The translations under genes and the position numbers were made by a program. From the IMG/VR virus record IMGVR_UViG_2667527965_000002: a stretch of DNA of 40,499 nt; one strand, 5' to 3'. This document shows, piece by piece, positions 1-40,142 of this stretch. Source of the stretch: a virus (lineage: Duplodnaviria > Heunggongvirae > Uroviricota > Caudoviricetes). The notes under the pieces are model-generated. The model was not told where the DNA came from. It saw only the letters and a program-made list of their open reading frames with translations, and ran no database searches. Numbering within the stretch: position 1 is the stretch's first letter; each line of letters opens with the position of its first letter.

Positions 1-1314
1 TTAACTTACTGATTTTAATAATCCTCCAGTACTGCTCTCGTGGCTATGGGGCATCAATGGGGCAAAATCTGCCAGCTTCTGATTCAGCATTGCGATCTGC
101 TCTGCGCTGCTGTCAGCCATCCATGCACCGTAAACATTGAACACCATCTGCGCGCTCGCATGCCCCATCTGACTGGCAATAAAACTCGGGTTTGCACCAG
201 CAGATAATGACCAGCACGCATAGGTATGTCGTGACTGGTACGCCTTTCTGTGTCTGATCCCCGCGCGCTTTAGTGCCGCTTCCCATGAGTCGCCTACTGA
301 ATCGACCCGGTAGATAAATCCGACCTGCTTACTGCGTCTGACCACATGCGGGTTAAAGACGAATGTACACTCATGGGTCACCGAACGACCGTACTCACGT
401 AACTGCACTTCAATGTGATATTGCCTGCCCAGCCTTGTCATTTCAGCCTGATTTTTCAGGATGCTGATTGCGGGCTGGATAAGATGCACCACTCGATCTG
501 TGCTTGCCTCGGTTTTCGGTAGAGTGAACTCACCAAGTTTCGTATAATTACGCCTGACGGTAATTGTTCCCGCCTTCAGGTCGATATCTTCCCAGGCCAG
601 GGAGACCAGTTCCCCGTGACGCATTCCTGTGTACACTGCTAATGACCACAGGTTTTTCGTCTGCTGATGCCGGCATGCATCTATCAGGCGAATAAATTCA
701 TCACGAGACAGAGGATCTGGTTCTGCCCTGGCTTTTTTCAGAGGTTTAATTCCCTCGAATGGGTTCACCTCTAAGTAACCGTGATCCGCAGCAAACTGAA
801 ACATTCCGGCCATTGTCGTCATGTAATAGTTCACAGTAACAACGCTTCGCCCTTTTGCCGGGGCTTTATTTTTCGTCGGACTCTGATAACCAGTTAGCAA
901 ATCTTTCCTGAGATACAGCAATTCCTCTTTGGTTACTGCTGACACCAGGCGATTACCTCCGATCCTCGGCACCATATTCCTTGCGACAGATTCATAGCGA
1001 TTGAATGCGTTCGCGCAGATTTCCATCCGTTTCAGATCCAGCCATTTTTCTTCAAGTTCTTTCACTGTAATGTCTTTTTTACTTACACCAAAAGCCTTGA
1101 GGTTAGGGGAGTCAGGAAACTGGGTTGCATAATCAAAGGTTCCTGTGCGGATGGCAAAACATACTGATGTCCGCAGTTCCCCGGCTATCTTTCTGTTCTT
1201 AGCGGTGTCAGGGACACCGAGACTTTCCCTGACACGCTTACCTTTAAAATTAAACCAGATGCGTAATGTGCCACCGTGGTTTTCGACGCCTGTTGGATAT
1301 GTGACTTTATCCAT
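1..1314 (-). CDS. int: Tyrosine site-specific integrase
   Basis: 437 aa ORF; N-terminal arm-binding-like region and C-terminal tyrosine recombinase-like region; first gene at prophage edge followed by a small excisionase-like ORF. Confidence 0.9.
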   Translation of the reverse strand: MDKVTYPTGVENHGGTLRIWFNFKGKRVRESLGVPDTAKNRKIAGELRTSVCFAIRTGTFDYATQFPDSPNLKAFGVSKKDITVKELEEKWLDLKRMEICANAFNRYESVARNMVPRIGGNRLVSAVTKEELLYLRKDLLTGYQSPTKNKAPAKGRSVVTVNYYMTTMAGMFQFAADHGYLEVNPFEGIKPLKKARAEPDPLSRDEFIRLIDACRHQQTKNLWSLAVYTGMRHGELVSLAWEDIDLKAGTITVRRNYTKLGEFTLPKTEASTDRVVHLIQPAISILKNQAEMTRLGRQYHIEVQLREYGRSVTHECTFVFNPHVVRRSKQVGFIYRVDSVGDSWEAALKRAGIRHRKAYQSRHTYACWSLSAGANPSFIASQMGHASAQMVFNVYGAWMADSSAEQIAMLNQKLADFAPLMPHSHESSTGGLLKSVS

Positions 1315-1372
1315 TGGTGTTACCTCCAGACGCCCAAGAGCGATACGAGCTTACCTTTTTCATGGCATCAAA

Positions 1373-1609
1373 TCACCCTGGCTGCTTGCTTTTCATTGAA
1401 GCGACCCAGGCATCTACAGCCTTTCTGTTATACATGCACTCACTGGAAGGTTTAGGATTTCCGTCAGGCGATACGTGGATATACTCCCTCCCAATCATCC
1501 AGCATTCTTTTCTGGCCCGGAGGATGGTACCGGGCTTGAGCCCGGTCACCGCGATCAGAACACTTTCACAAACCCAATCGTTGGGAGCTAACTGGAAAAT
1601 ATTGCTCAT
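1373..1609 (-). CDS. xis: Excisionase-like DNA-binding protein
   Basis: 78 aa ORF immediately upstream of int on the same strand; GREY-containing motif typical of small phage excisionases. Confidence 0.6.
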   Translation of the reverse strand: MSNIFQLAPNDWVCESVLIAVTGLKPGTILRARKECWMIGREYIHVSPDGNPKPSSECMYNRKAVDAWVASMKSKQPG

Positions 1610-1649
1610 AGTTATTTCTCCATTATCCCGGCTGCACCCGGGGAAAATT

Positions 1650-2228
1650 TTAGTTGTTGCTGGTGGTTGGGATTAGTTTCTGCCAAATCGCTGAAACATA
1701 TTTCGCCTGGTGGCGGGCATCAGCCAGTGCGTTATGTGCAACCCCATCAAATGGCATATCACGCTTAGGATCGAAACCTACAACTCTGCCTAATGTGACG
1801 ATGGTTCTGACGTCGTGATCATTCCAAAATTGCCACGGGCAAACCTGGCCGGCACGCTCATATGCGCCGCGCAATATAACGTTGTCGAAAGTAGCTCCAT
1901 TGCCCCAAACTTTTAAATATTTAGGGTTATCAGAATGCCGATTAATGAAATGGCTCAGTTCAGATAGGGCAGATGATATCGGCATCGCATCATCAACACA
2001 GATTGCTGATCGTGCTTCTGAGCTTTGTCTTAACCACCACAGAATAGTGTCACCGTCCGGCACCGCTCCCTGCTCCATAGCGCTTTCAAGATTAACAGCG
2101 GTGTAAAACTCCTGACCCAGTTCACCACTTTGCGGATCGAATAACACGGCACCAATGGAGACGATAGGGGCATTCGGCTTTTTGCCCATAGTTTCAAGAT
2201 CGATCATTAAATTGTTCACGTTATACAT
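1650..2228 (-). CDS. DEDDh-type 3'-5' exonuclease (DnaQ-like)
   Basis: MIDLETMG Exo I motif and later H-x4-D (HNALADA) motif; ATG at 2228 overlaps upstream stop (ATGTATAA); the longer track ORF begins with a non-ATG codon. Confidence 0.75.
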   Translation of the reverse strand: MYNVNNLMIDLETMGKKPNAPIVSIGAVLFDPQSGELGQEFYTAVNLESAMEQGAVPDGDTILWWLRQSSEARSAICVDDAMPISSALSELSHFINRHSDNPKYLKVWGNGATFDNVILRGAYERAGQVCPWQFWNDHDVRTIVTLGRVVGFDPKRDMPFDGVAHNALADARHQAKYVSAIWQKLIPTTSNN

Positions 2229-2904
2229 TCTCTTGATTAGGTGCTGTTGGCTGGTCACATCCCACACATGGGCAAGGACACATATTTTCTGATTGCTGCC
2301 AGCGGAAATAACCTGTGCCACCGCAGTATTTACAAGTTGAACCATCCGGAGTTACCGGAGAGTTGCCAGCCTGGAGAATAGATTTCAGCGCTGCCCTTGG
2401 CATTGCCGACCAGGCAAGAAATACGTCTGGCCTGTCGACATCTTCTGTCGGGAGAGTGTTTTCGATTTCGTCCAGCGCATCACTTAGCTTCTGAAATGCG
2501 TCGTCTGGAACAACGTGGCACTCTTCGCCATCAACATCTTGCTGACAGCTATCATCTGCGAGTTCGAATGCGGCCCCGCAAACATTGAGCAGCATTTCAA
2601 TAACGCGACGGTGTTCTGCTGTTACGCAATTCTCCGGCGCTACCGGCGCTCTCGGCTTGCCCTGGCTATCTGACGGCGCTAACGGAGCGTTTCTCAGTGC
2701 AGTGGCCAGCATTTCAATATCTACTGGTGCAGGCTCAGCACCAAACGCCGCAATTGCCCCTTCAATCACCTTCACAGCATCAGCCATTGCGTAGCCGAGA
2801 TTACCGCCGTCGCTTTGTGCTGCTGCTTTGCTGAGTATTTCGCGTATCTGGTGCAGGCGCTCGAGTGATACAGGACCGTGCGCCGGGTGGTTGTTAGTGG
2901 TCAT
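2221..2904 (-). CDS. Hypothetical phage protein with C-terminal Cys-rich (CxxC/CPCPC) region
   Basis: ORF in early-left operon; start ATG at 2904 overlaps upstream stop (ATGA) with GAGG about 9 nt upstream; alternative start at 2913. Confidence 0.55.
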   Translation of the reverse strand: MTTNNHPAHGPVSLERLHQIREILSKAAAQSDGGNLGYAMADAVKVIEGAIAAFGAEPAPVDIEMLATALRNAPLAPSDSQGKPRAPVAPENCVTAEHRRVIEMLLNVCGAAFELADDSCQQDVDGEECHVVPDDAFQKLSDALDEIENTLPTEDVDRPDVFLAWSAMPRAALKSILQAGNSPVTPDGSTCKYCGGTGYFRWQQSENMCPCPCVGCDQPTAPNQENV

Positions 2905-3233
2905 GCTGCCCATCCTCTGCGTAGATGGCCCAGCGCGTAACGCGCTTCTATCGGGTCTTCTTCTTCATATTCACAATTGACGCTTTTAACCATTGCCACA
3001 CAGCACTCGTTGCAACACCGATAGGACATGAGTTCGCCGTCGAATTTCCACGTCGTACTACGATGGATTTCACCCTTTAAAATTTCGCCAGCGCAAATGT
3101 GACATTTATATTCACCGCGAGAGGTAACAATTTTGTTCGATAGTTCGGTATCGCATGGCGTACCGAAATCACCTTCAAAAAGGTCAAAGTACAGTGCGTC
3201 GTCTAAATCCTGTTTGTTGAGTGAGTTAGTCAT
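2901..3233 (-). CDS. Hypothetical zinc-binding protein (CxxC ... CCNECC)
   Basis: ORF with paired cysteine motifs; start at 3233 chosen because the ORF upstream on this strand ends at 3226. Confidence 0.5.
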   Translation of the reverse strand: MTNSLNKQDLDDALYFDLFEGDFGTPCDTELSNKIVTSRGEYKCHICAGEILKGEIHRSTTWKFDGELMSYRCCNECCVAMVKSVNCEYEEEDPIEARYALGHLRRGWAA

Positions 3234-3570
3234 TCCAGGCCTCCAGCTCGTTCTGTATTTCCTCGTCAACCTCATCATTGGTGGCGTTCTTATTGAGTGT
3301 GCGCCGGGCTTCTTTCAGATATGACTCACGGCGTTCATCGTACCAGGCTGAGAATTCAGGCGACAAACCGTACAGGTACCCGAAAAAAGCAACCCTGGCA
3401 TTGTCCTCAGCCATACGCTCAACCATGCAATAAGCTGTAGTTAGTGCCGCTTCACGGATGTAACCGCGCAGGTCGCGCTTGCGCCAATACGGGCTATGTT
3501 TCGAGTCGCAGCGGCCTTTAAATTCGACGGTCCAGCGACGGATGCAACGTGCGTTCAGAGATTTACTCAT
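3226..3570 (-). CDS. Hypothetical phage protein
   Basis: 114 aa ORF; ATG overlaps stop of upstream gene (ATGA at 3567-3570). Confidence 0.55.
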   Translation of the reverse strand: MSKSLNARCIRRWTVEFKGRCDSKHSPYWRKRDLRGYIREAALTTAYCMVERMAEDNARVAFFGYLYGLSPEFSAWYDERRESYLKEARRTLNKNATNDEVDEEIQNELEAWND

Positions 3571-32533: not shown

Positions 32534-35500
32534 ATGACGACGACAATCATCAAAGGCCGCGGCAAAGGTGGCAGCAATCAGACCCGAACGCCTGTTGAGG
32601 CACCGGACAGCATTCAGTCCATTGCCAGGGCAAAAGTGCTTATTGCTCTTGGGGAGGGGGAGTTCGCCGGTGGGCTTGATGGTAAAAATATTTTCCTTGG
32701 TGACTCATCTTCATACACGCCTCTCCAGAACGCCGACGGAAGTTACAATTTCAATAATGTAAAATACGAGTTCCGTTCCGGTACTCAGGACCAGGATTAC
32801 ATTCAGGGCTTTCCGGGCATTGAAAACGAACTTCAGGTTTCATATGAGCTGAAACAGGCTGTGCCGTACGTGCGCGCGGTATCCAACACGCAGCTCTCTG
32901 CGCTGCGAATTCGCCTGGGATGGCCAACTCTTTTACTCCAGAAAAACAACGGCGATAAAGTCGGCACCCGCGTTGAGTATGCTATCGATCTGTCGGTCGA
33001 TGGCGGGCCGTATGAAACGGTGGTTAACGGTGCTGTTGATGACAAAACCACGTCGCTTTATGAGCGCAGTCACCGCGTCAATCTTCCGAAAGCCTCGACT
33101 GGATGGCAGTTGCGGGTTCGCAGAATCACGCCGGATTCCACGAGCGTGAATATCGTCGACACCATGCGCGTTGTGGCCGTTACTGAAATTATTGACGCCA
33201 AACTTCGCTACGTTAACACAGCGCTGCTGTATGTAGAGTTTGACGCAAAGCAGTTCCCTAATGGCATTCCTCAGGTTGTGTGTAATCCGAAAGGGCGAAT
33301 CATCCGTGTACCTGATACTTATGATCCCGAAACCCGCACTTATTCTGGTACATGGGAGGGCGTATTTAAATGGGCGTGGACGGATAACCCTGCCTGGATT
33401 TATTACGACATCATTCTGAACGAGCGCTTCGGGCTGGGTCAAAGAATCGATGCGACTCAGATAGACAAATGGGAACTTTATCGCATCGCCCAGTATTGCG
33501 ATCAACTGGTACCAGACGGCAAGGGCGGCAGCGGGACGGAGCCTCGTTTTCGTTGCAACGTTTATATCCAGGACCGTAATGACGCCTGGACCGTACTTCG
33601 TGATCTGGCGGGTATATTTCGCGGCATGACGTACTGGGGCGACAATAAGATGTATGTCCTGGCCGATATGCCCCGGGATGTGTGGCACATCTACAACCAC
33701 GCCAGCGTTGTTGAAGGAAAATTTACCTTTGCGGACCCGAGTGAAACCACCCGAAACACTGCCGCGCTGGTGAACTGGTCAGACCCTGCCAACCACTACA
33801 AAGATACGCCTGAGCCTGTTTACGATAGCGATCTGGCCATGCGTTTCGATTATCGTCAGCTCGAAATGACTGCGATCGGCTGCACCAGGCAGTCAGAGGC
33901 AAACCGGCGGGGGCGCTGGGCGCTGCTTACCAACGGTATCGGCGAGGTGGTGACCTTCAGCACAGGCATGGACGTCCCCCCTGTTGGTGAGGTGATCGGC
34001 GTGGCTGCTAACGAGCTGGCCGGAAGAACTATCGGCGGCAGGGTGAGTGCGGTTAACGGCCGCAACATAACCCTCGATCGCGCTGCTGATGTGAAAGCCG
34101 GTAATAGGCTGTTTTTGAATCTTCCGTCAGGCACAGCTCAGGCCAGAACCGTCCAGGCCGTTAACGGAAACACAGTCACTGTCACCACACCCTACAGCGA
34201 AACGCCGGAGGCTGAATGTAACTGGGGTGTGGACTCTGACGATCTGTTTATAGCGCTTTTCCGTGTTACGGGAACGCGGGACAACAACGACGGTACTTTC
34301 GAGGTCACCGGGACGACTTACAACCCTGATATCTATTCCGCTGTTGATACCGGCGCAAGACTGGACGAGCGGCCAGTCAGTGTCATTCCACCGGGGGTTC
34401 AGGCTCCCCCAGGAAATATTGTCGTAGACAGTTACTCTACGGTTAACCAGAACATTGCGATTACCACTATGCGCGTTGCCTGGGATTCTGTTCAGGGTGC
34501 AGTTGCGTACGAGGCGGAATGGCGGCGTGACAGCGGCAACTGGATTAGTGTGCCCCGAACGTCTTCTCTCGGCTTTGAAGTGCAGGGTATCTACTCGGGT
34601 CGCTATCTGGTCCGTGTCAGGGCGGTGAACGCCAGCGACGTTTCATCAGTATGGGCGACATCATCAGAAGTAAATCTTACGGGTAAAGTGGGCAATCCGC
34701 CGAAACCGGTTGGCTTCATCGCTTCTGAAAATGTGGTTTTCGGCATCGAGCTGAACTGGGGATTCCCGGCGAATACCGACGACACGCTGAAGACGGAAAT
34801 TCAGTATAGCCTGACCGGTACCGAGGACGATGCAATGCTGCTGGCCGATGTGCCTTACCCGCAGCGCAAATATCAGCAGATGGGCCTTAAGGCTGGGCAG
34901 ATTTTCTGGTACCGCGCGCAGCTGGTGGACCGCAGCGGCAACGAATCAGGGTACACAGAATGGGTGCGAGGACAGGCCAGCATAGATGTTTCCGACATCA
35001 CAGACGTGATCCTGGAGGAAATTAAAGACTCCGATACCTTCAAGGACCTGATCGAGAACGCGGTGGACAGCAATGAAAAAATTGCTGGCATGGCTGACGA
35101 AATTAAAAACCATGCCGACGAACTCGAGCAGCAGGCGAAAGACATCCTGGAGAACGCTGACGGGCTGGCTCAGGCCGAAGTGAAGATCGACGAGATTTCT
35201 GTGTCGATGGACGGCATGACGGGAGGAGTGAAGAACTCGGCAATCGCGATTATTCAGAATGGGCTGGCGCAGGTGGTAAGCCGTCGCTCGCAGACCGCCA
35301 CGAACGCCGGGAACAGTGCCAGTATAGACAGAGTGGATACTACGATTGCCGATACCAGCCAGGCGGTCGCACGCGCGCTGGTCACACTGGATGCAGAAGC
35401 TGGTGGCAATATCTCTAACTCAACGGACCTGACAGAAACTCTTGCTGATTTCACCCAGGCTTCGGCAACAAAAATCAACACTCTGACTGTTAAATCAGGC

Positions 35501-35995
35501 GAAAACAGTGCAGCGATAAACGTCAACGCACAGGCTATAGCAGATGTAAACGGTAACCTCAGCGCGATGTATAACATCAAGGTGGGGGTGTCCAGTAACG
35601 GGCAGTATTACGCTGCCGGGATGGGTATTGGGGTTCAAAATACACCCTCCGGCATGCAGTCACAGGTAATCTTCCTGGCAGACCGTTTCGCCGTGACTAC
35701 TATGGTCGGCGGGACTGTAACACTGCCGTTCGTTATCCAGAATGGCCAGGCCATTATCAGGGATACAGTCATTGGCGACGGGACCATAAGCAATGCAAAA
35801 ATTGGCAATTACATCCAGTCGAACAATTATGTTGCCGGCTCTGTTGGCTGGAAACTGGATAAGTCCGGGACGTTTGAGAACTACGGTTCGACAGCTGGGG
35901 AGGGAGCCATGAAGCAGACCAACCAGACAATCAGCGTCAAGGATGGCAACAACGTTCTGAGAGTGCAGGTTGGCCGATTAACGGGGGTGTTCTGA
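32534..35995 (+). CDS. Host specificity protein J (central tail fibre)
   Basis: 1153 aa; canonical position and size. Confidence 0.9.
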   Translation: MTTTIIKGRGKGGSNQTRTPVEAPDSIQSIARAKVLIALGEGEFAGGLDGKNIFLGDSSSYTPLQNADGSYNFNNVKYEFRSGTQDQDYIQGFPGIENELQVSYELKQAVPYVRAVSNTQLSALRIRLGWPTLLLQKNNGDKVGTRVEYAIDLSVDGGPYETVVNGAVDDKTTSLYERSHRVNLPKASTGWQLRVRRITPDSTSVNIVDTMRVVAVTEIIDAKLRYVNTALLYVEFDAKQFPNGIPQVVCNPKGRIIRVPDTYDPETRTYSGTWEGVFKWAWTDNPAWIYYDIILNERFGLGQRIDATQIDKWELYRIAQYCDQLVPDGKGGSGTEPRFRCNVYIQDRNDAWTVLRDLAGIFRGMTYWGDNKMYVLADMPRDVWHIYNHASVVEGKFTFADPSETTRNTAALVNWSDPANHYKDTPEPVYDSDLAMRFDYRQLEMTAIGCTRQSEANRRGRWALLTNGIGEVVTFSTGMDVPPVGEVIGVAANELAGRTIGGRVSAVNGRNITLDRAADVKAGNRLFLNLPSGTAQARTVQAVNGNTVTVTTPYSETPEAECNWGVDSDDLFIALFRVTGTRDNNDGTFEVTGTTYNPDIYSAVDTGARLDERPVSVIPPGVQAPPGNIVVDSYSTVNQNIAITTMRVAWDSVQGAVAYEAEWRRDSGNWISVPRTSSLGFEVQGIYSGRYLVRVRAVNASDVSSVWATSSEVNLTGKVGNPPKPVGFIASENVVFGIELNWGFPANTDDTLKTEIQYSLTGTEDDAMLLADVPYPQRKYQQMGLKAGQIFWYRAQLVDRSGNESGYTEWVRGQASIDVSDITDVILEEIKDSDTFKDLIENAVDSNEKIAGMADEIKNHADELEQQAKDILENADGLAQAEVKIDEISVSMDGMTGGVKNSAIAIIQNGLAQVVSRRSQTATNAGNSASIDRVDTTIADTSQAVARALVTLDAEAGGNISNSTDLTETLADFTQASATKINTLTVKSGENSAAINVNAQAIADVNGNLSAMYNIKVGVSSNGQYYAAGMGIGVQNTPSGMQSQVIFLADRFAVTTMVGGTVTLPFVIQNGQAIIRDTVIGDGTISNAKIGNYIQSNNYVAGSVGWKLDKSGTFENYGSTAGEGAMKQTNQTISVKDGNNVLRVQVGRLTGVF

Positions 35996-35996
35996 T

Positions 35997-36299
35997 ATGG
36001 CTTATGGAATACAGACCTGGGATGCTTCGGGAAACCCCAACAACTACGGAATCAAGCCCGTTTCCGTTGTTGGACGTATACAACTTGCCGCCGGACAAAA
36101 CTCCGGCAGCTGGTCTTTCACTGTACCCTCAGGAATGAAGGTCGGTTTTGCGCTCTCACTTGATGAAGGAGGTAACAGCGTAGGGAGGAGCATTGTCGCG
36201 TCAGGGAACACAATAACCGTAACCGCAGCCTCTTCTGTGGGCCTGGGTAATTACCCGGCCTCTAAATGTGAGGTGGTCGTTTTCATGGAGAAAGCATAA
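35997..36299 (+). CDS. Hypothetical protein downstream of J
   Basis: 100 aa ORF, translationally coupled to J. Confidence 0.5.
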   Translation: MAYGIQTWDASGNPNNYGIKPVSVVGRIQLAAGQNSGSWSFTVPSGMKVGFALSLDEGGNSVGRSIVASGNTITVTAASSVGLGNYPASKCEVVVFMEKA

Positions 36300-36973
36300 T
36301 GGCCGAATTTGGCGCGATGATATTAATGGATAACGGGAATCCCTTTGTAACGCCACAATCAACGCCTTTCTGTCTTTACGGGAAGTATACCTTCAATTCA
36401 TCCGCGAATGGCAGTTCTCAGCAGGTTGCTCAAAATATCGCTTTAAACGCTGATTACCCAGTGATGGTTTTTATCAAAACCACCAATACAGCACAGCCCA
36501 CTCCGGTTATGTCTTACAGGAACGGCGGTAATGTGTATGTTGCTGGTGTTAATCCCTACAACCAAAGTTTCACTTTAACGGCGTACGTTTTTGCCATATT
36601 CCCGCAGATATTACCGAAATGGGGTTTGGCAATATGGGATGCGAGCGGAAAGCTTGTGTTAACTAATGAGTCCCGTGTGCTATCAGACCTGCAGACGGTT
36701 GGCACGCCTGGTGCAAACGGCGGGATAAATATTGACCAGACGCTGAGCGGGTCATGGGCCGTTGCACCTGCTCAGTTGGGTCAGACCATCATTGTGAATA
36801 ATTCAACCCAGCCTCCGACTATCTACACGATAAATGCTTATTCTTCATGCAGGTTTGACGGGGCCAATACGAGGATAAACGCAGGGGGGACCTCCACTGG
36901 GGCAGGTTCACCTGGAGGGGGAACGAATACTGGCATTTCATTAACCGCCATAAATACAGCGGCCTATGATTGA
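36299..36973 (+). CDS. Hypothetical protein downstream of J
   Basis: 224 aa ORF; start overlaps upstream stop. Confidence 0.5.
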   Translation: MAEFGAMILMDNGNPFVTPQSTPFCLYGKYTFNSSANGSSQQVAQNIALNADYPVMVFIKTTNTAQPTPVMSYRNGGNVYVAGVNPYNQSFTLTAYVFAIFPQILPKWGLAIWDASGKLVLTNESRVLSDLQTVGTPGANGGINIDQTLSGSWAVAPAQLGQTIIVNNSTQPPTIYTINAYSSCRFDGANTRINAGGTSTGAGSPGGGTNTGISLTAINTAAYD

Positions 36974-37084
36974 TTGATCGTTTTTAGCGATCAATAACAT
37001 AATATTGATCTATCCAATCAATTATACCCACCAGAATTGTATTGGTATCGTCTAAGATACTGAATTCCTCTGGATACTATCAAA

Positions 37085-37318
37085 ATGAGAAAACTGATTA
37101 TCTGCATGGCAGGCGCTGTCATGCTTACAGGATGCGCTGGCGTAATTGAGAAACAGGAACCAGTTTGCAGCGGCACTGCAATCGTTGGCGGTCAGGAAAC
37201 TACGGTTCAGATTTACGGTGTGCGTAAACAAAACAACCAGACGCAGTACCGGGCTGGATATCCTTTCAGCTGGCGCTGGGTAAGTGCGAATACATTTACC
37301 GAAACAACCTGCAAATAA
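37085..37318 (+). CDS. Small lipoprotein (possible Cor-like superinfection-exclusion protein)
   Basis: 77 aa; signal peptide with lipobox LTGC; own terminator; located between J region and tail fibre gene. Confidence 0.5.
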   Translation: MRKLIICMAGAVMLTGCAGVIEKQEPVCSGTAIVGGQETTVQIYGVRKQNNQTQYRAGYPFSWRWVSANTFTETTCK

Positions 37319-37339
37319 CCCACTACGCTTAAACATAAA

Positions 37340-37362
37340 CCTCGCTCCGGCGGGGTTTTTTT
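37340..37362 (+). terminator. Rho-independent terminator
   Basis: Stem CCTCGC/GCGGGG (one G-U pair), loop TCCG, followed by T7. Confidence 0.6.
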
Positions 37363-37378
37363 ATTGCCTGGAGAAAAT

Positions 37379-38647
37379 ATGCTTTATAACACCGGCACCA
37401 TCGCCATTAATGGAAATACCGCCACCGGGACGGGCACAAACTGGACAGCTCCCGCCAGCCAGGTCCGCGCTGGCCAGACGATTATCGTGATGTCTAACCC
37501 GGTGCAGCTGTTTCAGATTTCATCCGTGAACAGCGCCACGTCAATGACGGTTACGCCAGCAGTTTCCCCGGCGCTGAGCGGCCAGAAGTATGGAATCCTT
37601 GTGTCGGACAATATCTCAGTCGACGGCCTGGCGCAGGCCATGTCACAGCTCATCAAAGAGTACGACGAGAATATTGGCGCGTGGGAGGCGTTCGCCAGCA
37701 CTACAGCCAACCAGATGATCACGGTCACCATCAACGGTGTAAGCATGAGCATCCCCTCCATTGGCAGCATGGCAAAAAAAGGGGTAAATAAAGACATCAC
37801 CAGTCTGGAAGGGCTGACCACAGCATTGTCTGTAAAGCAGGGCGGTACTGGCGGTACTACCCAGGCCAGCGCACGTGAAGGGCTTGGTTTGAAAAAAGGA
37901 TTTCCTGTATCCGAATATAATTCGACCAGTGAATCTGTGATTGATAACGTCGTGGCAAAAATGAGGGGATTCAGTCTTGCAACCCTACAGAACATATTGC
38001 CAATGACGGGTGAATTCTATGAAATTCCACAAAGTGCGCCCACATTATGGGTGGGAGCAAACGATACGTGGTTTCTCATGAGCGTGCATTATTTTGCCAG
38101 GGGCATCCGTGTAATGTCCGGATACGGCACTGCGGGGGTTTCAACAACCCGTCTGTTGCTGGACAATCTGACAACCACTGTTGATGCAAACGGGTTTATA
38201 AAAAAAGCCTCACCTGTTGTGCGACTTACCAATGATCACAGAGGCATGCCTGCTGGTTTTCTCGAAGATTTTTCACTTTCTGGCTGTGCCGCGACCAATA
38301 TGGAGGCGGAAGGCGTTACAGCGGAAAAAATTGCTACTGGCGTATATGAAATACGTGGCGCTGTCGGGCTACACGCTGACGGCTGGACTATTGAAATCCC
38401 ACAGGATTCAAATGGCAACCGCCTGTGTTTTGTGGAGACGCAATCCACTCAGGGCGGAACCATTATCGTGTCGGTTTTTAAACGTCGCTTTGACAGTGAA
38501 ACCGCTATGATCGTCGCAGGTGAGCCGATGGATATTCCCGCCGGGCGATGGATAGACCTGCGTCTCGAAATGCCAGAAAGTTCGGTGTTCAACCAGAAAC
38601 TGAAAGCCGCACAACAAGGTGGTGGTGCTGACAGTAGCCCGAGCTGA
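37379..38647 (+). CDS. Tail fibre protein
   Basis: 422 aa from ATG 37379 (GGAG SD); Gly/Thr/Asn-rich N-terminus typical of side tail fibres. Confidence 0.65.
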   Translation: MLYNTGTIAINGNTATGTGTNWTAPASQVRAGQTIIVMSNPVQLFQISSVNSATSMTVTPAVSPALSGQKYGILVSDNISVDGLAQAMSQLIKEYDENIGAWEAFASTTANQMITVTINGVSMSIPSIGSMAKKGVNKDITSLEGLTTALSVKQGGTGGTTQASAREGLGLKKGFPVSEYNSTSESVIDNVVAKMRGFSLATLQNILPMTGEFYEIPQSAPTLWVGANDTWFLMSVHYFARGIRVMSGYGTAGVSTTRLLLDNLTTTVDANGFIKKASPVVRLTNDHRGMPAGFLEDFSLSGCAATNMEAEGVTAEKIATGVYEIRGAVGLHADGWTIEIPQDSNGNRLCFVETQSTQGGTIIVSVFKRRFDSETAMIVAGEPMDIPAGRWIDLRLEMPESSVFNQKLKAAQQGGGADSSPS

Positions 38648-38754: not shown

Positions 38755-39083
38755 ATGCAACTACAACGCCTTATTTTTCCGGACGTTCCGGTATATATCC
38801 CTGTTTATGGGGATCTCATTTCGGCAGGCTTTCCCAGTCCTGCCGCTGACTATATCGAGAGCGGCATCGATCTGTGTCGCATCTTATTCTCCACCCCTCA
38901 TCGACATATACACTTCGCGTCGCCAGAGATTCAATGATCAATGCCGGCATCCTCGATGGTTCATACCTTCTCATTGATTTCAGCCTCCATCCCGAAGACG
39001 GTGATATTGTCGTCAGTAACATCGTGGGCGGGTCTGGTTTCTACAAAGATTCCCGCACAACGGGCGGGAATCGGGTAAGCTGA
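38755..39083 (+). pseudogene. umuD-like S24 peptidase gene, frameshifted and 3'-truncated
   Basis: Frame 1 encodes ...GFPSPAADYIESGIDL..., frame 0 continues ...HPSSTYTLRVARDSMINAGILDG...; frames switch around 38885-38892; ORF ends well before the expected C-terminus. Confidence 0.6.
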
Positions 39084-39102: not shown

Positions 39103-39705
39103 CTAGTTTAAAAATGGATAAACTTTAAAAGAAGCCCATAAATCATTGTTAAGTGCCAACAAACCTACGGAGATATAGGATAATATCGCAAGTGCTCCTG
39201 TAAAATAAAGTATGGATTTCTTTATTTTTTTCCAAAGAATTAGGGCTGGAATTGAAGTTACGGCAATCACACCCATCTGATAACAAAATTGTCTGGCAAT
39301 GTCACCATCACTCCAAGGGTATATAAAAACATAAGGGGCGAAAAGTATTAAATGGACAAGTCTAAGTATAACCCCTATACATGCCCCAGGTATTGCAAAA
39401 AAGCCCCCCGCGCTTTGTAATAATAAGCTTGCCCTCATGCCGGGTATGAGAATAAAAAAATTAAGAATAGCCCAGAATATTAATATTATCGTGGCATAGC
39501 CAAAAAGAGTGCTTAACCCAGATTGACCGCCAACTGCTGTAAACTGTGGCGTCTGGTAAGACTGGCTCGGCTGACTAACTGATTTGCTGGCATCACATGC
39601 ACTTTGCCAGCTCTCTGCATTGTCTGCCTGCCATTTATGATCATACTGTGTAAAAGGCCTGTCACTGGTAACATACTTGCCTTCATCATCTTGCCTAACA
39701 CCCAT
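39103..39705 (-). CDS. AT-rich hypothetical polytopic membrane protein
   Basis: 200 aa; about 70-aa polar N-terminal region then about four hydrophobic helices; low GC. Confidence 0.55.
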   Translation of the reverse strand: MGVRQDDEGKYVTSDRPFTQYDHKWQADNAESWQSACDASKSVSQPSQSYQTPQFTAVGGQSGLSTLFGYATIILIFWAILNFFILIPGMRASLLLQSAGGFFAIPGACIGVILRLVHLILFAPYVFIYPWSDGDIARQFCYQMGVIAVTSIPALILWKKIKKSILYFTGALAILSYISVGLLALNNDLWASFKVYPFLN

Positions 39706-39902: not shown

Positions 39903-40142
39903 TTAACCCGCAGCCAGCCTCATATCGGCCTCTTCAAACATATCTTCCAACATGCGATTCAGTTTTTCCTGATCACTCTTGCTGGCATCGCTGTTTAAGC
40001 CGTTCGCCTGCATCGGCTTAACCTTCACTTCTGCATCCGGAAAGATCCGGTGCACTCGCTTTGTTAACTCATTCAGAATTATTTCTCTGGCACCTGTTAA
40101 TCCTTCAACATTCCGTTTGTCGTACACCAACTCAACGAACAT
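39903..40142 (-). CDS. DinI-like DNA-damage-inducible protein
   Basis: About 79 aa from ATG 40142 (GGAGG SD); sequence and acidic C-terminus resemble DinI family; LexA-like box upstream. Confidence 0.65.
   Translation of the reverse strand: MFVELVYDKRNVEGLTGAREIILNELTKRVHRIFPDAEVKVKPMQANGLNSDASKSDQEKLNRMLEDMFEEADMRLAAG

Follow-up and report, generated by a model that had tools for sequence, protein, structure and literature searches.

The cor gene of the SZQ1 prophage

The stretch of DNA analysed here, hereafter the window, is the 40,499-nucleotide IMG/VR virus record IMGVR_UViG_2667527965_000002 (Caudoviricetes), which corresponds to a prophage of Escherichia coli strain SZQ1 (NZ_CP173996.1, 100% identity). 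This report concerns a gene for a 77-amino-acid lipoprotein within it and the repeats that lie immediately upstream (Table 1). As judged from its sequence, the gene is almost certainly cor, which in lambdoid phages of the phi80 type serves lysogenic conversion and superinfection exclusion, and the repeats are read here as Dam methylation sites in a candidate OxyR operator. The cor gene itself is already known, and the present one is one further copy of the phi80 type; the value of the locus lies in its control region, not in the gene.

A first-pass annotation of the window had described a 77-amino-acid lipoprotein with the lipobox LTGC, a terminator of its own and a possible Cor-like function in superinfection exclusion. 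The open reading frame, its lipobox and the terminator were all found where they had been placed. The profile search against the Cor family that had been suggested gave a full-length match to PHROG 1119, 'Cor superinfection exclusion protein' (E 7e-37, PHROGs profile search), and 140.9 bits against a cut-off of 31 for the NCBIfam equivalog NF047972, 'phage exclusion lipoprotein Cor' (E 9e-42), which bore out the proposed Cor identity. The protein was 100% identical over its 77 residues to Cor of phi80, the founding member of the family (CBH95076), and to Cor of mEp213, mEp043, HK140 and HK225, and its identity to HK022 Cor and T1 Cor was 79% and 37%, respectively. The DNA between 36900 and 37400 was 100% identical in four mEp/HK phages and 94% identical in phi80. 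In Pfam, no family was above cut-off for the lipoprotein, the only matches being chance-level ones to DUF4223 and MiAMP1. The cor region was found in 45 of 5,426 complete E. coli genomes. The SZQ1 copy is labelled 'hypothetical protein' (WP_001228569.1) by RefSeq/PGAP, and identical DNA is called cor in other genomes.

The lipoprotein signal consists of MRK, a hydrophobic stretch and L-T-G-C17, followed by Ala at +2. By the established Lol rule, Ala at +2 predicts sorting to the outer membrane. Among 39-41 Cor homologues, residues G16, C17 and C28 were near-invariant and C76 was invariant, and we infer a disulfide between C28 and C76. In the phi80 record, Cys17 is annotated as acylated and as the residue ahead of which signal peptidase II cuts. 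For the identical phi80 protein, the literature reports inactivation of FhuA, loss of ferrichrome uptake and protection against colicin M; Cor is also known from N15, HK022 and mEp167.

Table 1. Features of the cor locus and examples of other genes preceded by the same module. Positions are those of the window unless a locus is named.
Feature	Position	Strand	Basis or remark
cor, pre-lipoprotein of 77 amino acids	37085..37318	+	protein MRKLIICMAGAVMLTGC...; matches to phi80 Cor and NF047972 given in the text
Cor signal peptide	37085-37132	+	predicted
Codon of lipidated Cys17	37133-37135	+	predicted
Mature Cor, 61 amino acids		+	predicted
Inverted repeat ATTGATCG-N7-CGATCAAT	36973..36995	.	candidate first OxyR-type half site; holds Dam sites 1 and 2
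Candidate OxyR operator ATCGTTTTTAGCGAT-CAATAAC-ATAATATTGATCTAT	36977..37013	.	16/20 of the OxyR consensus; three Dam sites
cor promoter, weak -35-like TTATAC	37022-37027 (37021-37026 by the phi80 alignment)	+	transferred from phi80 annotation
cor promoter, extended -10 TGGTATCGT	37043-37051	+	transferred from phi80 annotation
cor promoter, predicted transcription start site	~37059	+	transferred from phi80 annotation
Rho-independent terminator of the cor moron	37337..37366	+	9-bp stem (37337-37358), 4-nt loop, T run
Host-specificity (J) tail-tip protein, 1153 amino acids, mosaic	32534..35995	+	PGAP 'host specificity protein J'; BLASTP against phi80 gp21
phi80 gp22 homologue, 100 amino acids, first cor-cassette gene	35997..36299	+	phrog_557 'outer membrane protein', E 3e-36; position of phi80 gene 22
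phi80 gp23 homologue, 224 amino acids, second cor-cassette gene	36299..36973	+	phrog_425 'membrane associated protein', E 1e-80; position of phi80 gene 23
Side tail fibre gene	37379..38647	+	phrog_1591, E 8e-126; Pfam Phage_tail_C_2, E 3e-39
Module-preceded gene: 120-amino-acid lipoprotein			phrog_25729
Module-preceded gene: 40-amino-acid membrane peptide			C-terminal end DETEKDYEECPYD
Module-preceded gene: 47-amino-acid protein			
Module-preceded gene: 60-amino-acid four-cysteine protein			N10 spacing variant
Module-preceded gene: DinI-family protein			PF06183
Module-preceded gene: secreted TonB_C-domain protein			PF03544
Module-preceded stretch of ~75 nt, GAAAGGCAAAGACGCGGCAAC...AAGCCCGCATCACTGCGGGCTTTTTT	L204:1981-2130		terminator-ended, no consistent open reading frame; about 16 similar loci (L155, L175, L224, L265 and others)

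Dam sites and a candidate OxyR operator upstream of cor

The first-pass annotation had correctly recorded repeated TTGATC motifs (36974, + strand; 36989, - strand; 37005, + strand) and the inverted repeat upstream of cor and had left them uninterpreted. The arms of the inverted repeat (36973-36980 and 36988-36995) are perfect over 8 bp and separated by a 7-nt spacer, and the first of its bases is also the last of the upstream stop codon. Each TTGATC/GATCAA copy contains one Dam (GATC) site, at 36976-36979, 36989-36992 and 37007-37010, and this triple is flanked by 1.79 kb upstream and 0.7 kb downstream that are free of GATC. On both strands of the whole window TTGATC occurs 19 times, and three copies within 37 bp would be expected about 0.003 times by a Poisson estimate. 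GATC occurs 142 times, and a triple within 35 bp is estimated at about once per window; given that the GATC triple is expected this often, it is its conservation that provides the decisive evidence.

OxyR sites were scored on a crude scale of 20 specified positions, as two copies of ATAGxTxxxAxCTAT placed 7 bp apart, a spacing that is reportedly the one between OxyR consensus copies. The dimer consensus is quoted in PMC2909390. With a score of 16, the candidate operator was the sole site in the window above 13, the background maximum; none of 50 shuffles of the whole window and 2 of 5,000 shuffles of the intergenic region reached this score. Regions of known OxyR control scored 16 (oxyS/oxyR), 14 (katG, dps and agn43) and 13 (ahpC and mom) on the same scale. 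The Dam sites fall at positions 0-3, 13-16 and 31-34 of the consensus, that is, with a spacing of 13+18. The Fur, FNR, CRP and IHF consensus sequences matched the intergenic region at chance level, with 772-3492 of 5,000 shuffles being as good. Control of cor by a Fur box, attractive since FhuA is an iron transporter, was rejected because of this chance-level match. Nor was there support for an additional, third half site of the kind that OxyR has over the gtr promoter, 37021-37035 fitting at only 4 of 10 positions.

The promoter elements of cor were moved from the phi80 record (-35, -10 and transcription start) to the window by a gap-free alignment. By that start, the candidate operator would lie at about -82 to -46, abutting the weak -35 element. 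Among 56 non-redundant cassettes, the -10 signature TAnnnT was located 39 or 40 bp past the third GATC in 73%, any other offset accounting for at most 11%, and a -35-like peak appeared at +15/16 after the third GATC. Given that both promoter signals keep a fixed distance from Dam site 3, the candidate operator and the promoter form one unit. An agn43-like geometry was also considered, in which TTAACC-18-TATGAT (36941-36970) would serve as the promoter and place the operator at +1. The downstream extended -10 promoter was preferred, because TATGAT represents the Tyr-Asp codons that end the upstream gene and because the number of bases between it and the first GATC differs from locus to locus.

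When cor was compared across species, the exact arrangement GATC-N9-GATC-N14-GATC was shared by 31 of 38 loci (including species of Enterobacter, Rahnella, Hafnia, Citrobacter, Kluyvera, Phytobacter and Siccibacter), at Cor identities as low as about 50%, and three further loci of the 38 carry one of the two GATC pairs. The chance of an exact triple is about 4e-6 per locus. Among cor loci on viral contigs, 68 of 80 (48 distinct upstream sequences) retained all three GATC. When 27 representatives less than 85% identical to one another were aligned without gaps, the blocks GATCGtTT..a.CGATCAAT and aTTGATCTaT were 90-100% conserved and the columns between these blocks were 40-60% conserved. This alignment was anchored on two of the three GATC; the position-based count over the 38 loci is independent of the anchor. 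No GATC was present within 170 bp upstream of cor in T1, SSU5, phi367 and YD-2008.s, where OxyR scores were 9-12. Since these phages, which are virulent or otherwise different, lack upstream GATC, the methylation-sensitive module appears to occur only with prophage-type cor loci. In T1 and YD-2008.s, a gp23-like gene was seen on the opposite strand.

Viral-collection scans were carried out with the exact pattern GATCG-N7-CGATCAAT-N9-TTGATC and its N10 variant. The N9 pattern was present in at least 120 copies and the N10 pattern in 22, none of the 22 N10 cassettes being at a cor locus. Among the matches listed, about 54 cassettes were followed by cor, and the module also preceded no fewer than 30 unrelated small prophage genes that have terminators of their own (IMG/VR loci L133-L274, e.g. 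L156, L179, L137, L195, L229 and L139; Table 1). The terminator-ended stretch of about 75 nt may represent a small RNA moron beside a tail fibre assembly gene; in Rfam no family passed the threshold for it, and phage records gave no match. Two of the non-cor cassettes were searched in E. coli genomes and phage records and neither cassette was found: one query matched nothing, and the other, in E. coli genomes only, hit nothing but the tail fibre assembly gene next to it. We tentatively propose that a portable promoter cassette, made up of an OxyR operator with three Dam sites and a -35/-10 pair at fixed distance, might confer phase-variable expression on cor and on dozens of unrelated prophage morons across the Enterobacteriaceae. 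If so, cor would let a lysogen population hedge its bets epigenetically between taking up iron and defending itself against phages, in that blocked cells resist phages and colicin M and take up no ferrichrome, and the module would offer a sequence signature for spotting phase-variable prophage accessory genes of unknown function.

Alternative explanations and the proposed mode of control

On sequence comparison, we consider the explanation as a whole, namely cor together with a candidate Dam-sensitive OxyR operator of the mom/agn43 type, to be highly probable. Several observations weigh against it. Conservation among loci does not extend to the third quarter of the OxyR consensus (36999-37002), and it is strong at some bases for which the consensus does not account (CAAT following Dam site 2, AATT preceding site 3 and A.C.ATT following site 3). 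The reader of the Dam sites could be another protein. The literature describes lysogens as simply 'converted'. In addition, the HK022-type loci (positions 390-430 of L003, the HK022 locus, and nine IMG/VR loci) have lost Dam site 1 by a 4-bp deletion and Dam site 3 by a change of TTGATC to TTTATC, yet HK022 is among the phages listed as Cor-proficient. These loci keep the match to the OxyR consensus, with a score of 15, and they make up a natural variant whose control by methylation is expected to be weaker.

The strongest of the alternatives accepts that the Dam sites matter and assigns them to a reader other than OxyR: SeqA on hemimethylated GATC pairs, a direct effect of methylation on the promoter, or some further host or phage regulator of TTGATC/GATCAA half sites. 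In its favour, the non-consensus bases are as highly conserved as the OxyR consensus positions, conservation is lacking in one quarter site, and the sequence can be read as four alternating TTGATC/GATCAA-like half sites (36974, 36989, 37005 and 37016). However, only OxyR gave a significant match among the consensus sequences tested, the other four falling in the chance range reported above, and the layout, along with much of the sequence, recurs in the three three-GATC OxyR operators that have been proven by experiment. Since the module is common to phages of many immunity groups, a regulator encoded by the phage itself is improbable. We therefore regard another reader as unlikely, though as the leading competitor of OxyR.

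The inverted repeat might instead work at the RNA level, as a hairpin in the late transcript behind the gp23-like gene that stabilises a 3' end, is processed or weakly terminates transcription, and not as a DNA operator. Its first base belongs to the upstream stop codon, and it folds at -10.2 kcal/mol (z -4.6), none of 200 shuffles being as stable. Against this, no U run follows the repeat, Rfam gave no match, and the module is also present where no gene ends upstream. Moreover, the left arm varies between loci (AACGATCG, AGCGATCG, TACGATCG and others) and the right arm stays CGATCAAT; because the pairs lost by these left-arm changes are not compensated in the right arm, the repeat does not appear to be under selection as a hairpin. 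A hairpin would also leave the third site and its fixed distance to the -10 element unexplained, and we consider this explanation very improbable.

Marginally less probable still is that the repeats have no regulatory role, that cor is expressed constitutively from its own promoter, and that the TTGATC copies arose by chance or are relics of the recombination that inserted the moron. The density of GATC alone predicts about one GATC triple within 35 bp per 40-kb window, and close relatives have the whole intergenic region in common through recent common descent. Neither point accounts for the identical spacing across the 31 species-level loci, where the intervening bases are randomised and Cor identity falls to about half, nor for the same module and fixed-distance promoter ahead of unrelated genes. 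Finally, a Bor-like serum-resistance factor, which the first-pass annotation had offered as the other option for a small prophage-encoded lipoprotein with its own transcription unit, can be practically dismissed, since no Bor family matched in Pfam even at E <= 1, the protein is identical to phi80 Cor and the closest solved structure to its model is Llp bound to FhuA.

In the model that we favour, cor forms, as is established for the family, a transcription unit of its own (promoter, reading frame and terminator) inside the late tail operon, and signal peptidase II cuts the pre-lipoprotein before Cys17. By analogy with other family members, the 61-residue, beta-rich domain with its Llp-like fold would bind FhuA from the periplasmic side and inactivate it. 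Phages that use FhuA, including the prophage's own kind with a phi80-type J C-terminus, would then be blocked, and the cell would pay with the loss of ferrichrome uptake. The repeats, with three GATC inside one OxyR site, would act as a Dam-methylation-sensitive operator of the Mu mom/agn43 type: OxyR would bind only the unmethylated operator, Dam methylation would exclude OxyR, and two heritable expression states would follow, splitting a lysogen population into FhuA-blocked and FhuA-open cells. That OxyR and Dam act at the candidate cor operator is, in our judgement, somewhat favoured by the site comparison. True phase variation of cor as the outcome is held with more reserve, as a serious possibility. 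OxyR could serve either as a repressor, as at mom and agn43, or as an activator, as in the ON state of gtr.

No literature linking cor with OxyR, Dam or phase variation was found in a search whose coverage did not extend to the older cor papers and the phi80 genome paper. To that extent, the cor control region appears to add to the Dam/OxyR operators of the mom/agn43 class a member that has so far gone undescribed. Were it to function as the mom and agn43 operators do, the cells of a lysogen would differ epigenetically in exclusion by Cor instead of all sharing it as a fixed property. This would account for how prophages keep down the cost in iron uptake that comes with closing FhuA.

Genomic setting and comparison with known systems

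The placement of cor between the J region and a tail fibre gene by the first-pass annotation holds for the region as a whole, but the gene does not adjoin J, two small genes being interposed (35997-36299 and 36299-36973; Table 1). These are the phrog_557 and phrog_425 genes, and with them cor follows a phi80-type J C-terminus of about 320 residues. A three-gene 'cor cassette' after the tail-tip gene has been published for FhuA-dependent phages (PMC13164509). In BLASTP, J was 63% identical to phi80 gp21 overall, with about 96% identity over residues ~835-1153 and about 50% in the N-terminal part; a mosaic junction is located within the J gene at about 35030 (J residue ~835). Because the C-terminal ~320 residues of J are of the phi80 type, in contrast to the remainder, and stand alongside the cor cassette, it follows that the receptor-binding end of J and the matching exclusion gene travelled together. 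From the position of this junction, the module exchanged with phi80-type phages would span the receptor-binding end of J, gp22, gp23, cor and the start of the tail fibre gene. In a search of phage records, the first 25 kb of the window were covered by no record.

The cor terminator folds at -14 kcal/mol (z -2.55) and is also annotated in phi80, mEp213 and mEp390. In phi80, the start of the tail fibre gene contains a moron in antisense orientation ('gene 25'), which has a promoter and a terminator of its own; the open reading frame list contained none of that size on the - strand at 37384-37641 of the window. Beyond the tail fibre gene lie a 69-amino-acid fragment of an S24 peptidase (UmuD/LexA-like; 38874-39083) and an unknown gene (39103-39705, - strand), followed further right by a DinI-family gene (39903-40142, - strand) and truncated host genes, including an isochorismatase-family pseudogene. 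The segment 38874-40499 is probably the accessory end of the prophage together with the chromosome junction.

Compared with phi80 itself, the signal peptide, lipobox, terminator and place after the gp22/gp23 homologues and the phi80-type J C-terminus agree, as does the protein; the differences are the 94% DNA identity and the location of the SZQ1 gene in another, mosaic prophage. The same operator element is carried by phi80, which is in standard use as a laboratory phage. The T5 lipoprotein Llp provides a more distant counterpart. The Cor model has a predicted Llp fold, and its closest solved structure is the complex of Llp with FhuA (PDB 8A60), at 13% identity in the structural alignment, with no profile match in Pfam or PHROGs and with a Foldseek result that alone is not significant (E 0.54). 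Llp is an early gene of a virulent phage, whereas cor is a prophage moron.

Among operators, that of Mu mom (CGATCGAATCAATTAAATCGATCGGTAATACAGATCGAT) is likewise phage-borne and contains three GATC, with a spacing of 18+13 that is the exact mirror of the 13+18 at cor; the OxyR consensus is palindromic. Each is placed ahead of a weak promoter, that of mom at roughly -88 to -52 and the candidate operator of cor at -82 to -46. Control of mom by Dam and OxyR is established, with OxyR as the repressor, and methylation is known to block the binding of OxyR at mom as it does at agn43 and gtr. The mom operator differs in its mirror orientation and in the distance from the last GATC to the -10 element (44 bp, against 39 for cor); moreover, mom also needs the Mu C activator and its product is a DNA-modification function.

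The operator of agn43 (flu), a gene of the cryptic prophage CP4-44 of K-12, resembles that of cor in having one OxyR site with three GATC (CGATCAATATCTATTTTATCGATCGTTTATATCGATCGAT). Its core GATCGTTTATATCGATCGAT and the cor core GATCGTTTTTAGCGATCAAT are identical at 17 of 20 positions, and GATCAATAT at the third agn43 site is common to both. The spacing is 19+13 in agn43, and its operator lies at and after the transcription start, whereas that of cor would lie upstream of the -35 element. Given this position, OxyR represses agn43 by occlusion; methylation abrogates OxyR binding, so that the repressor is excluded.

A broader resemblance is to gtr of P22-like prophages and opvAB of Salmonella, which are prophage or horizontally acquired surface-modifying phage-resistance genes subject to Dam/OxyR phase variation. 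As at cor, these genes have GATC pairs 13 bp apart inside one OxyR half site. In P22 gtr, methylation abolishes OxyR binding, and OxyR is the activator in the ON state. The gtr and opvAB regions contain four GATC, and their three or four half sites are occupied alternatively, giving upstream activation or repression over the promoter, whereas cor has a single candidate tetramer site, three GATC and no convincing third half site.

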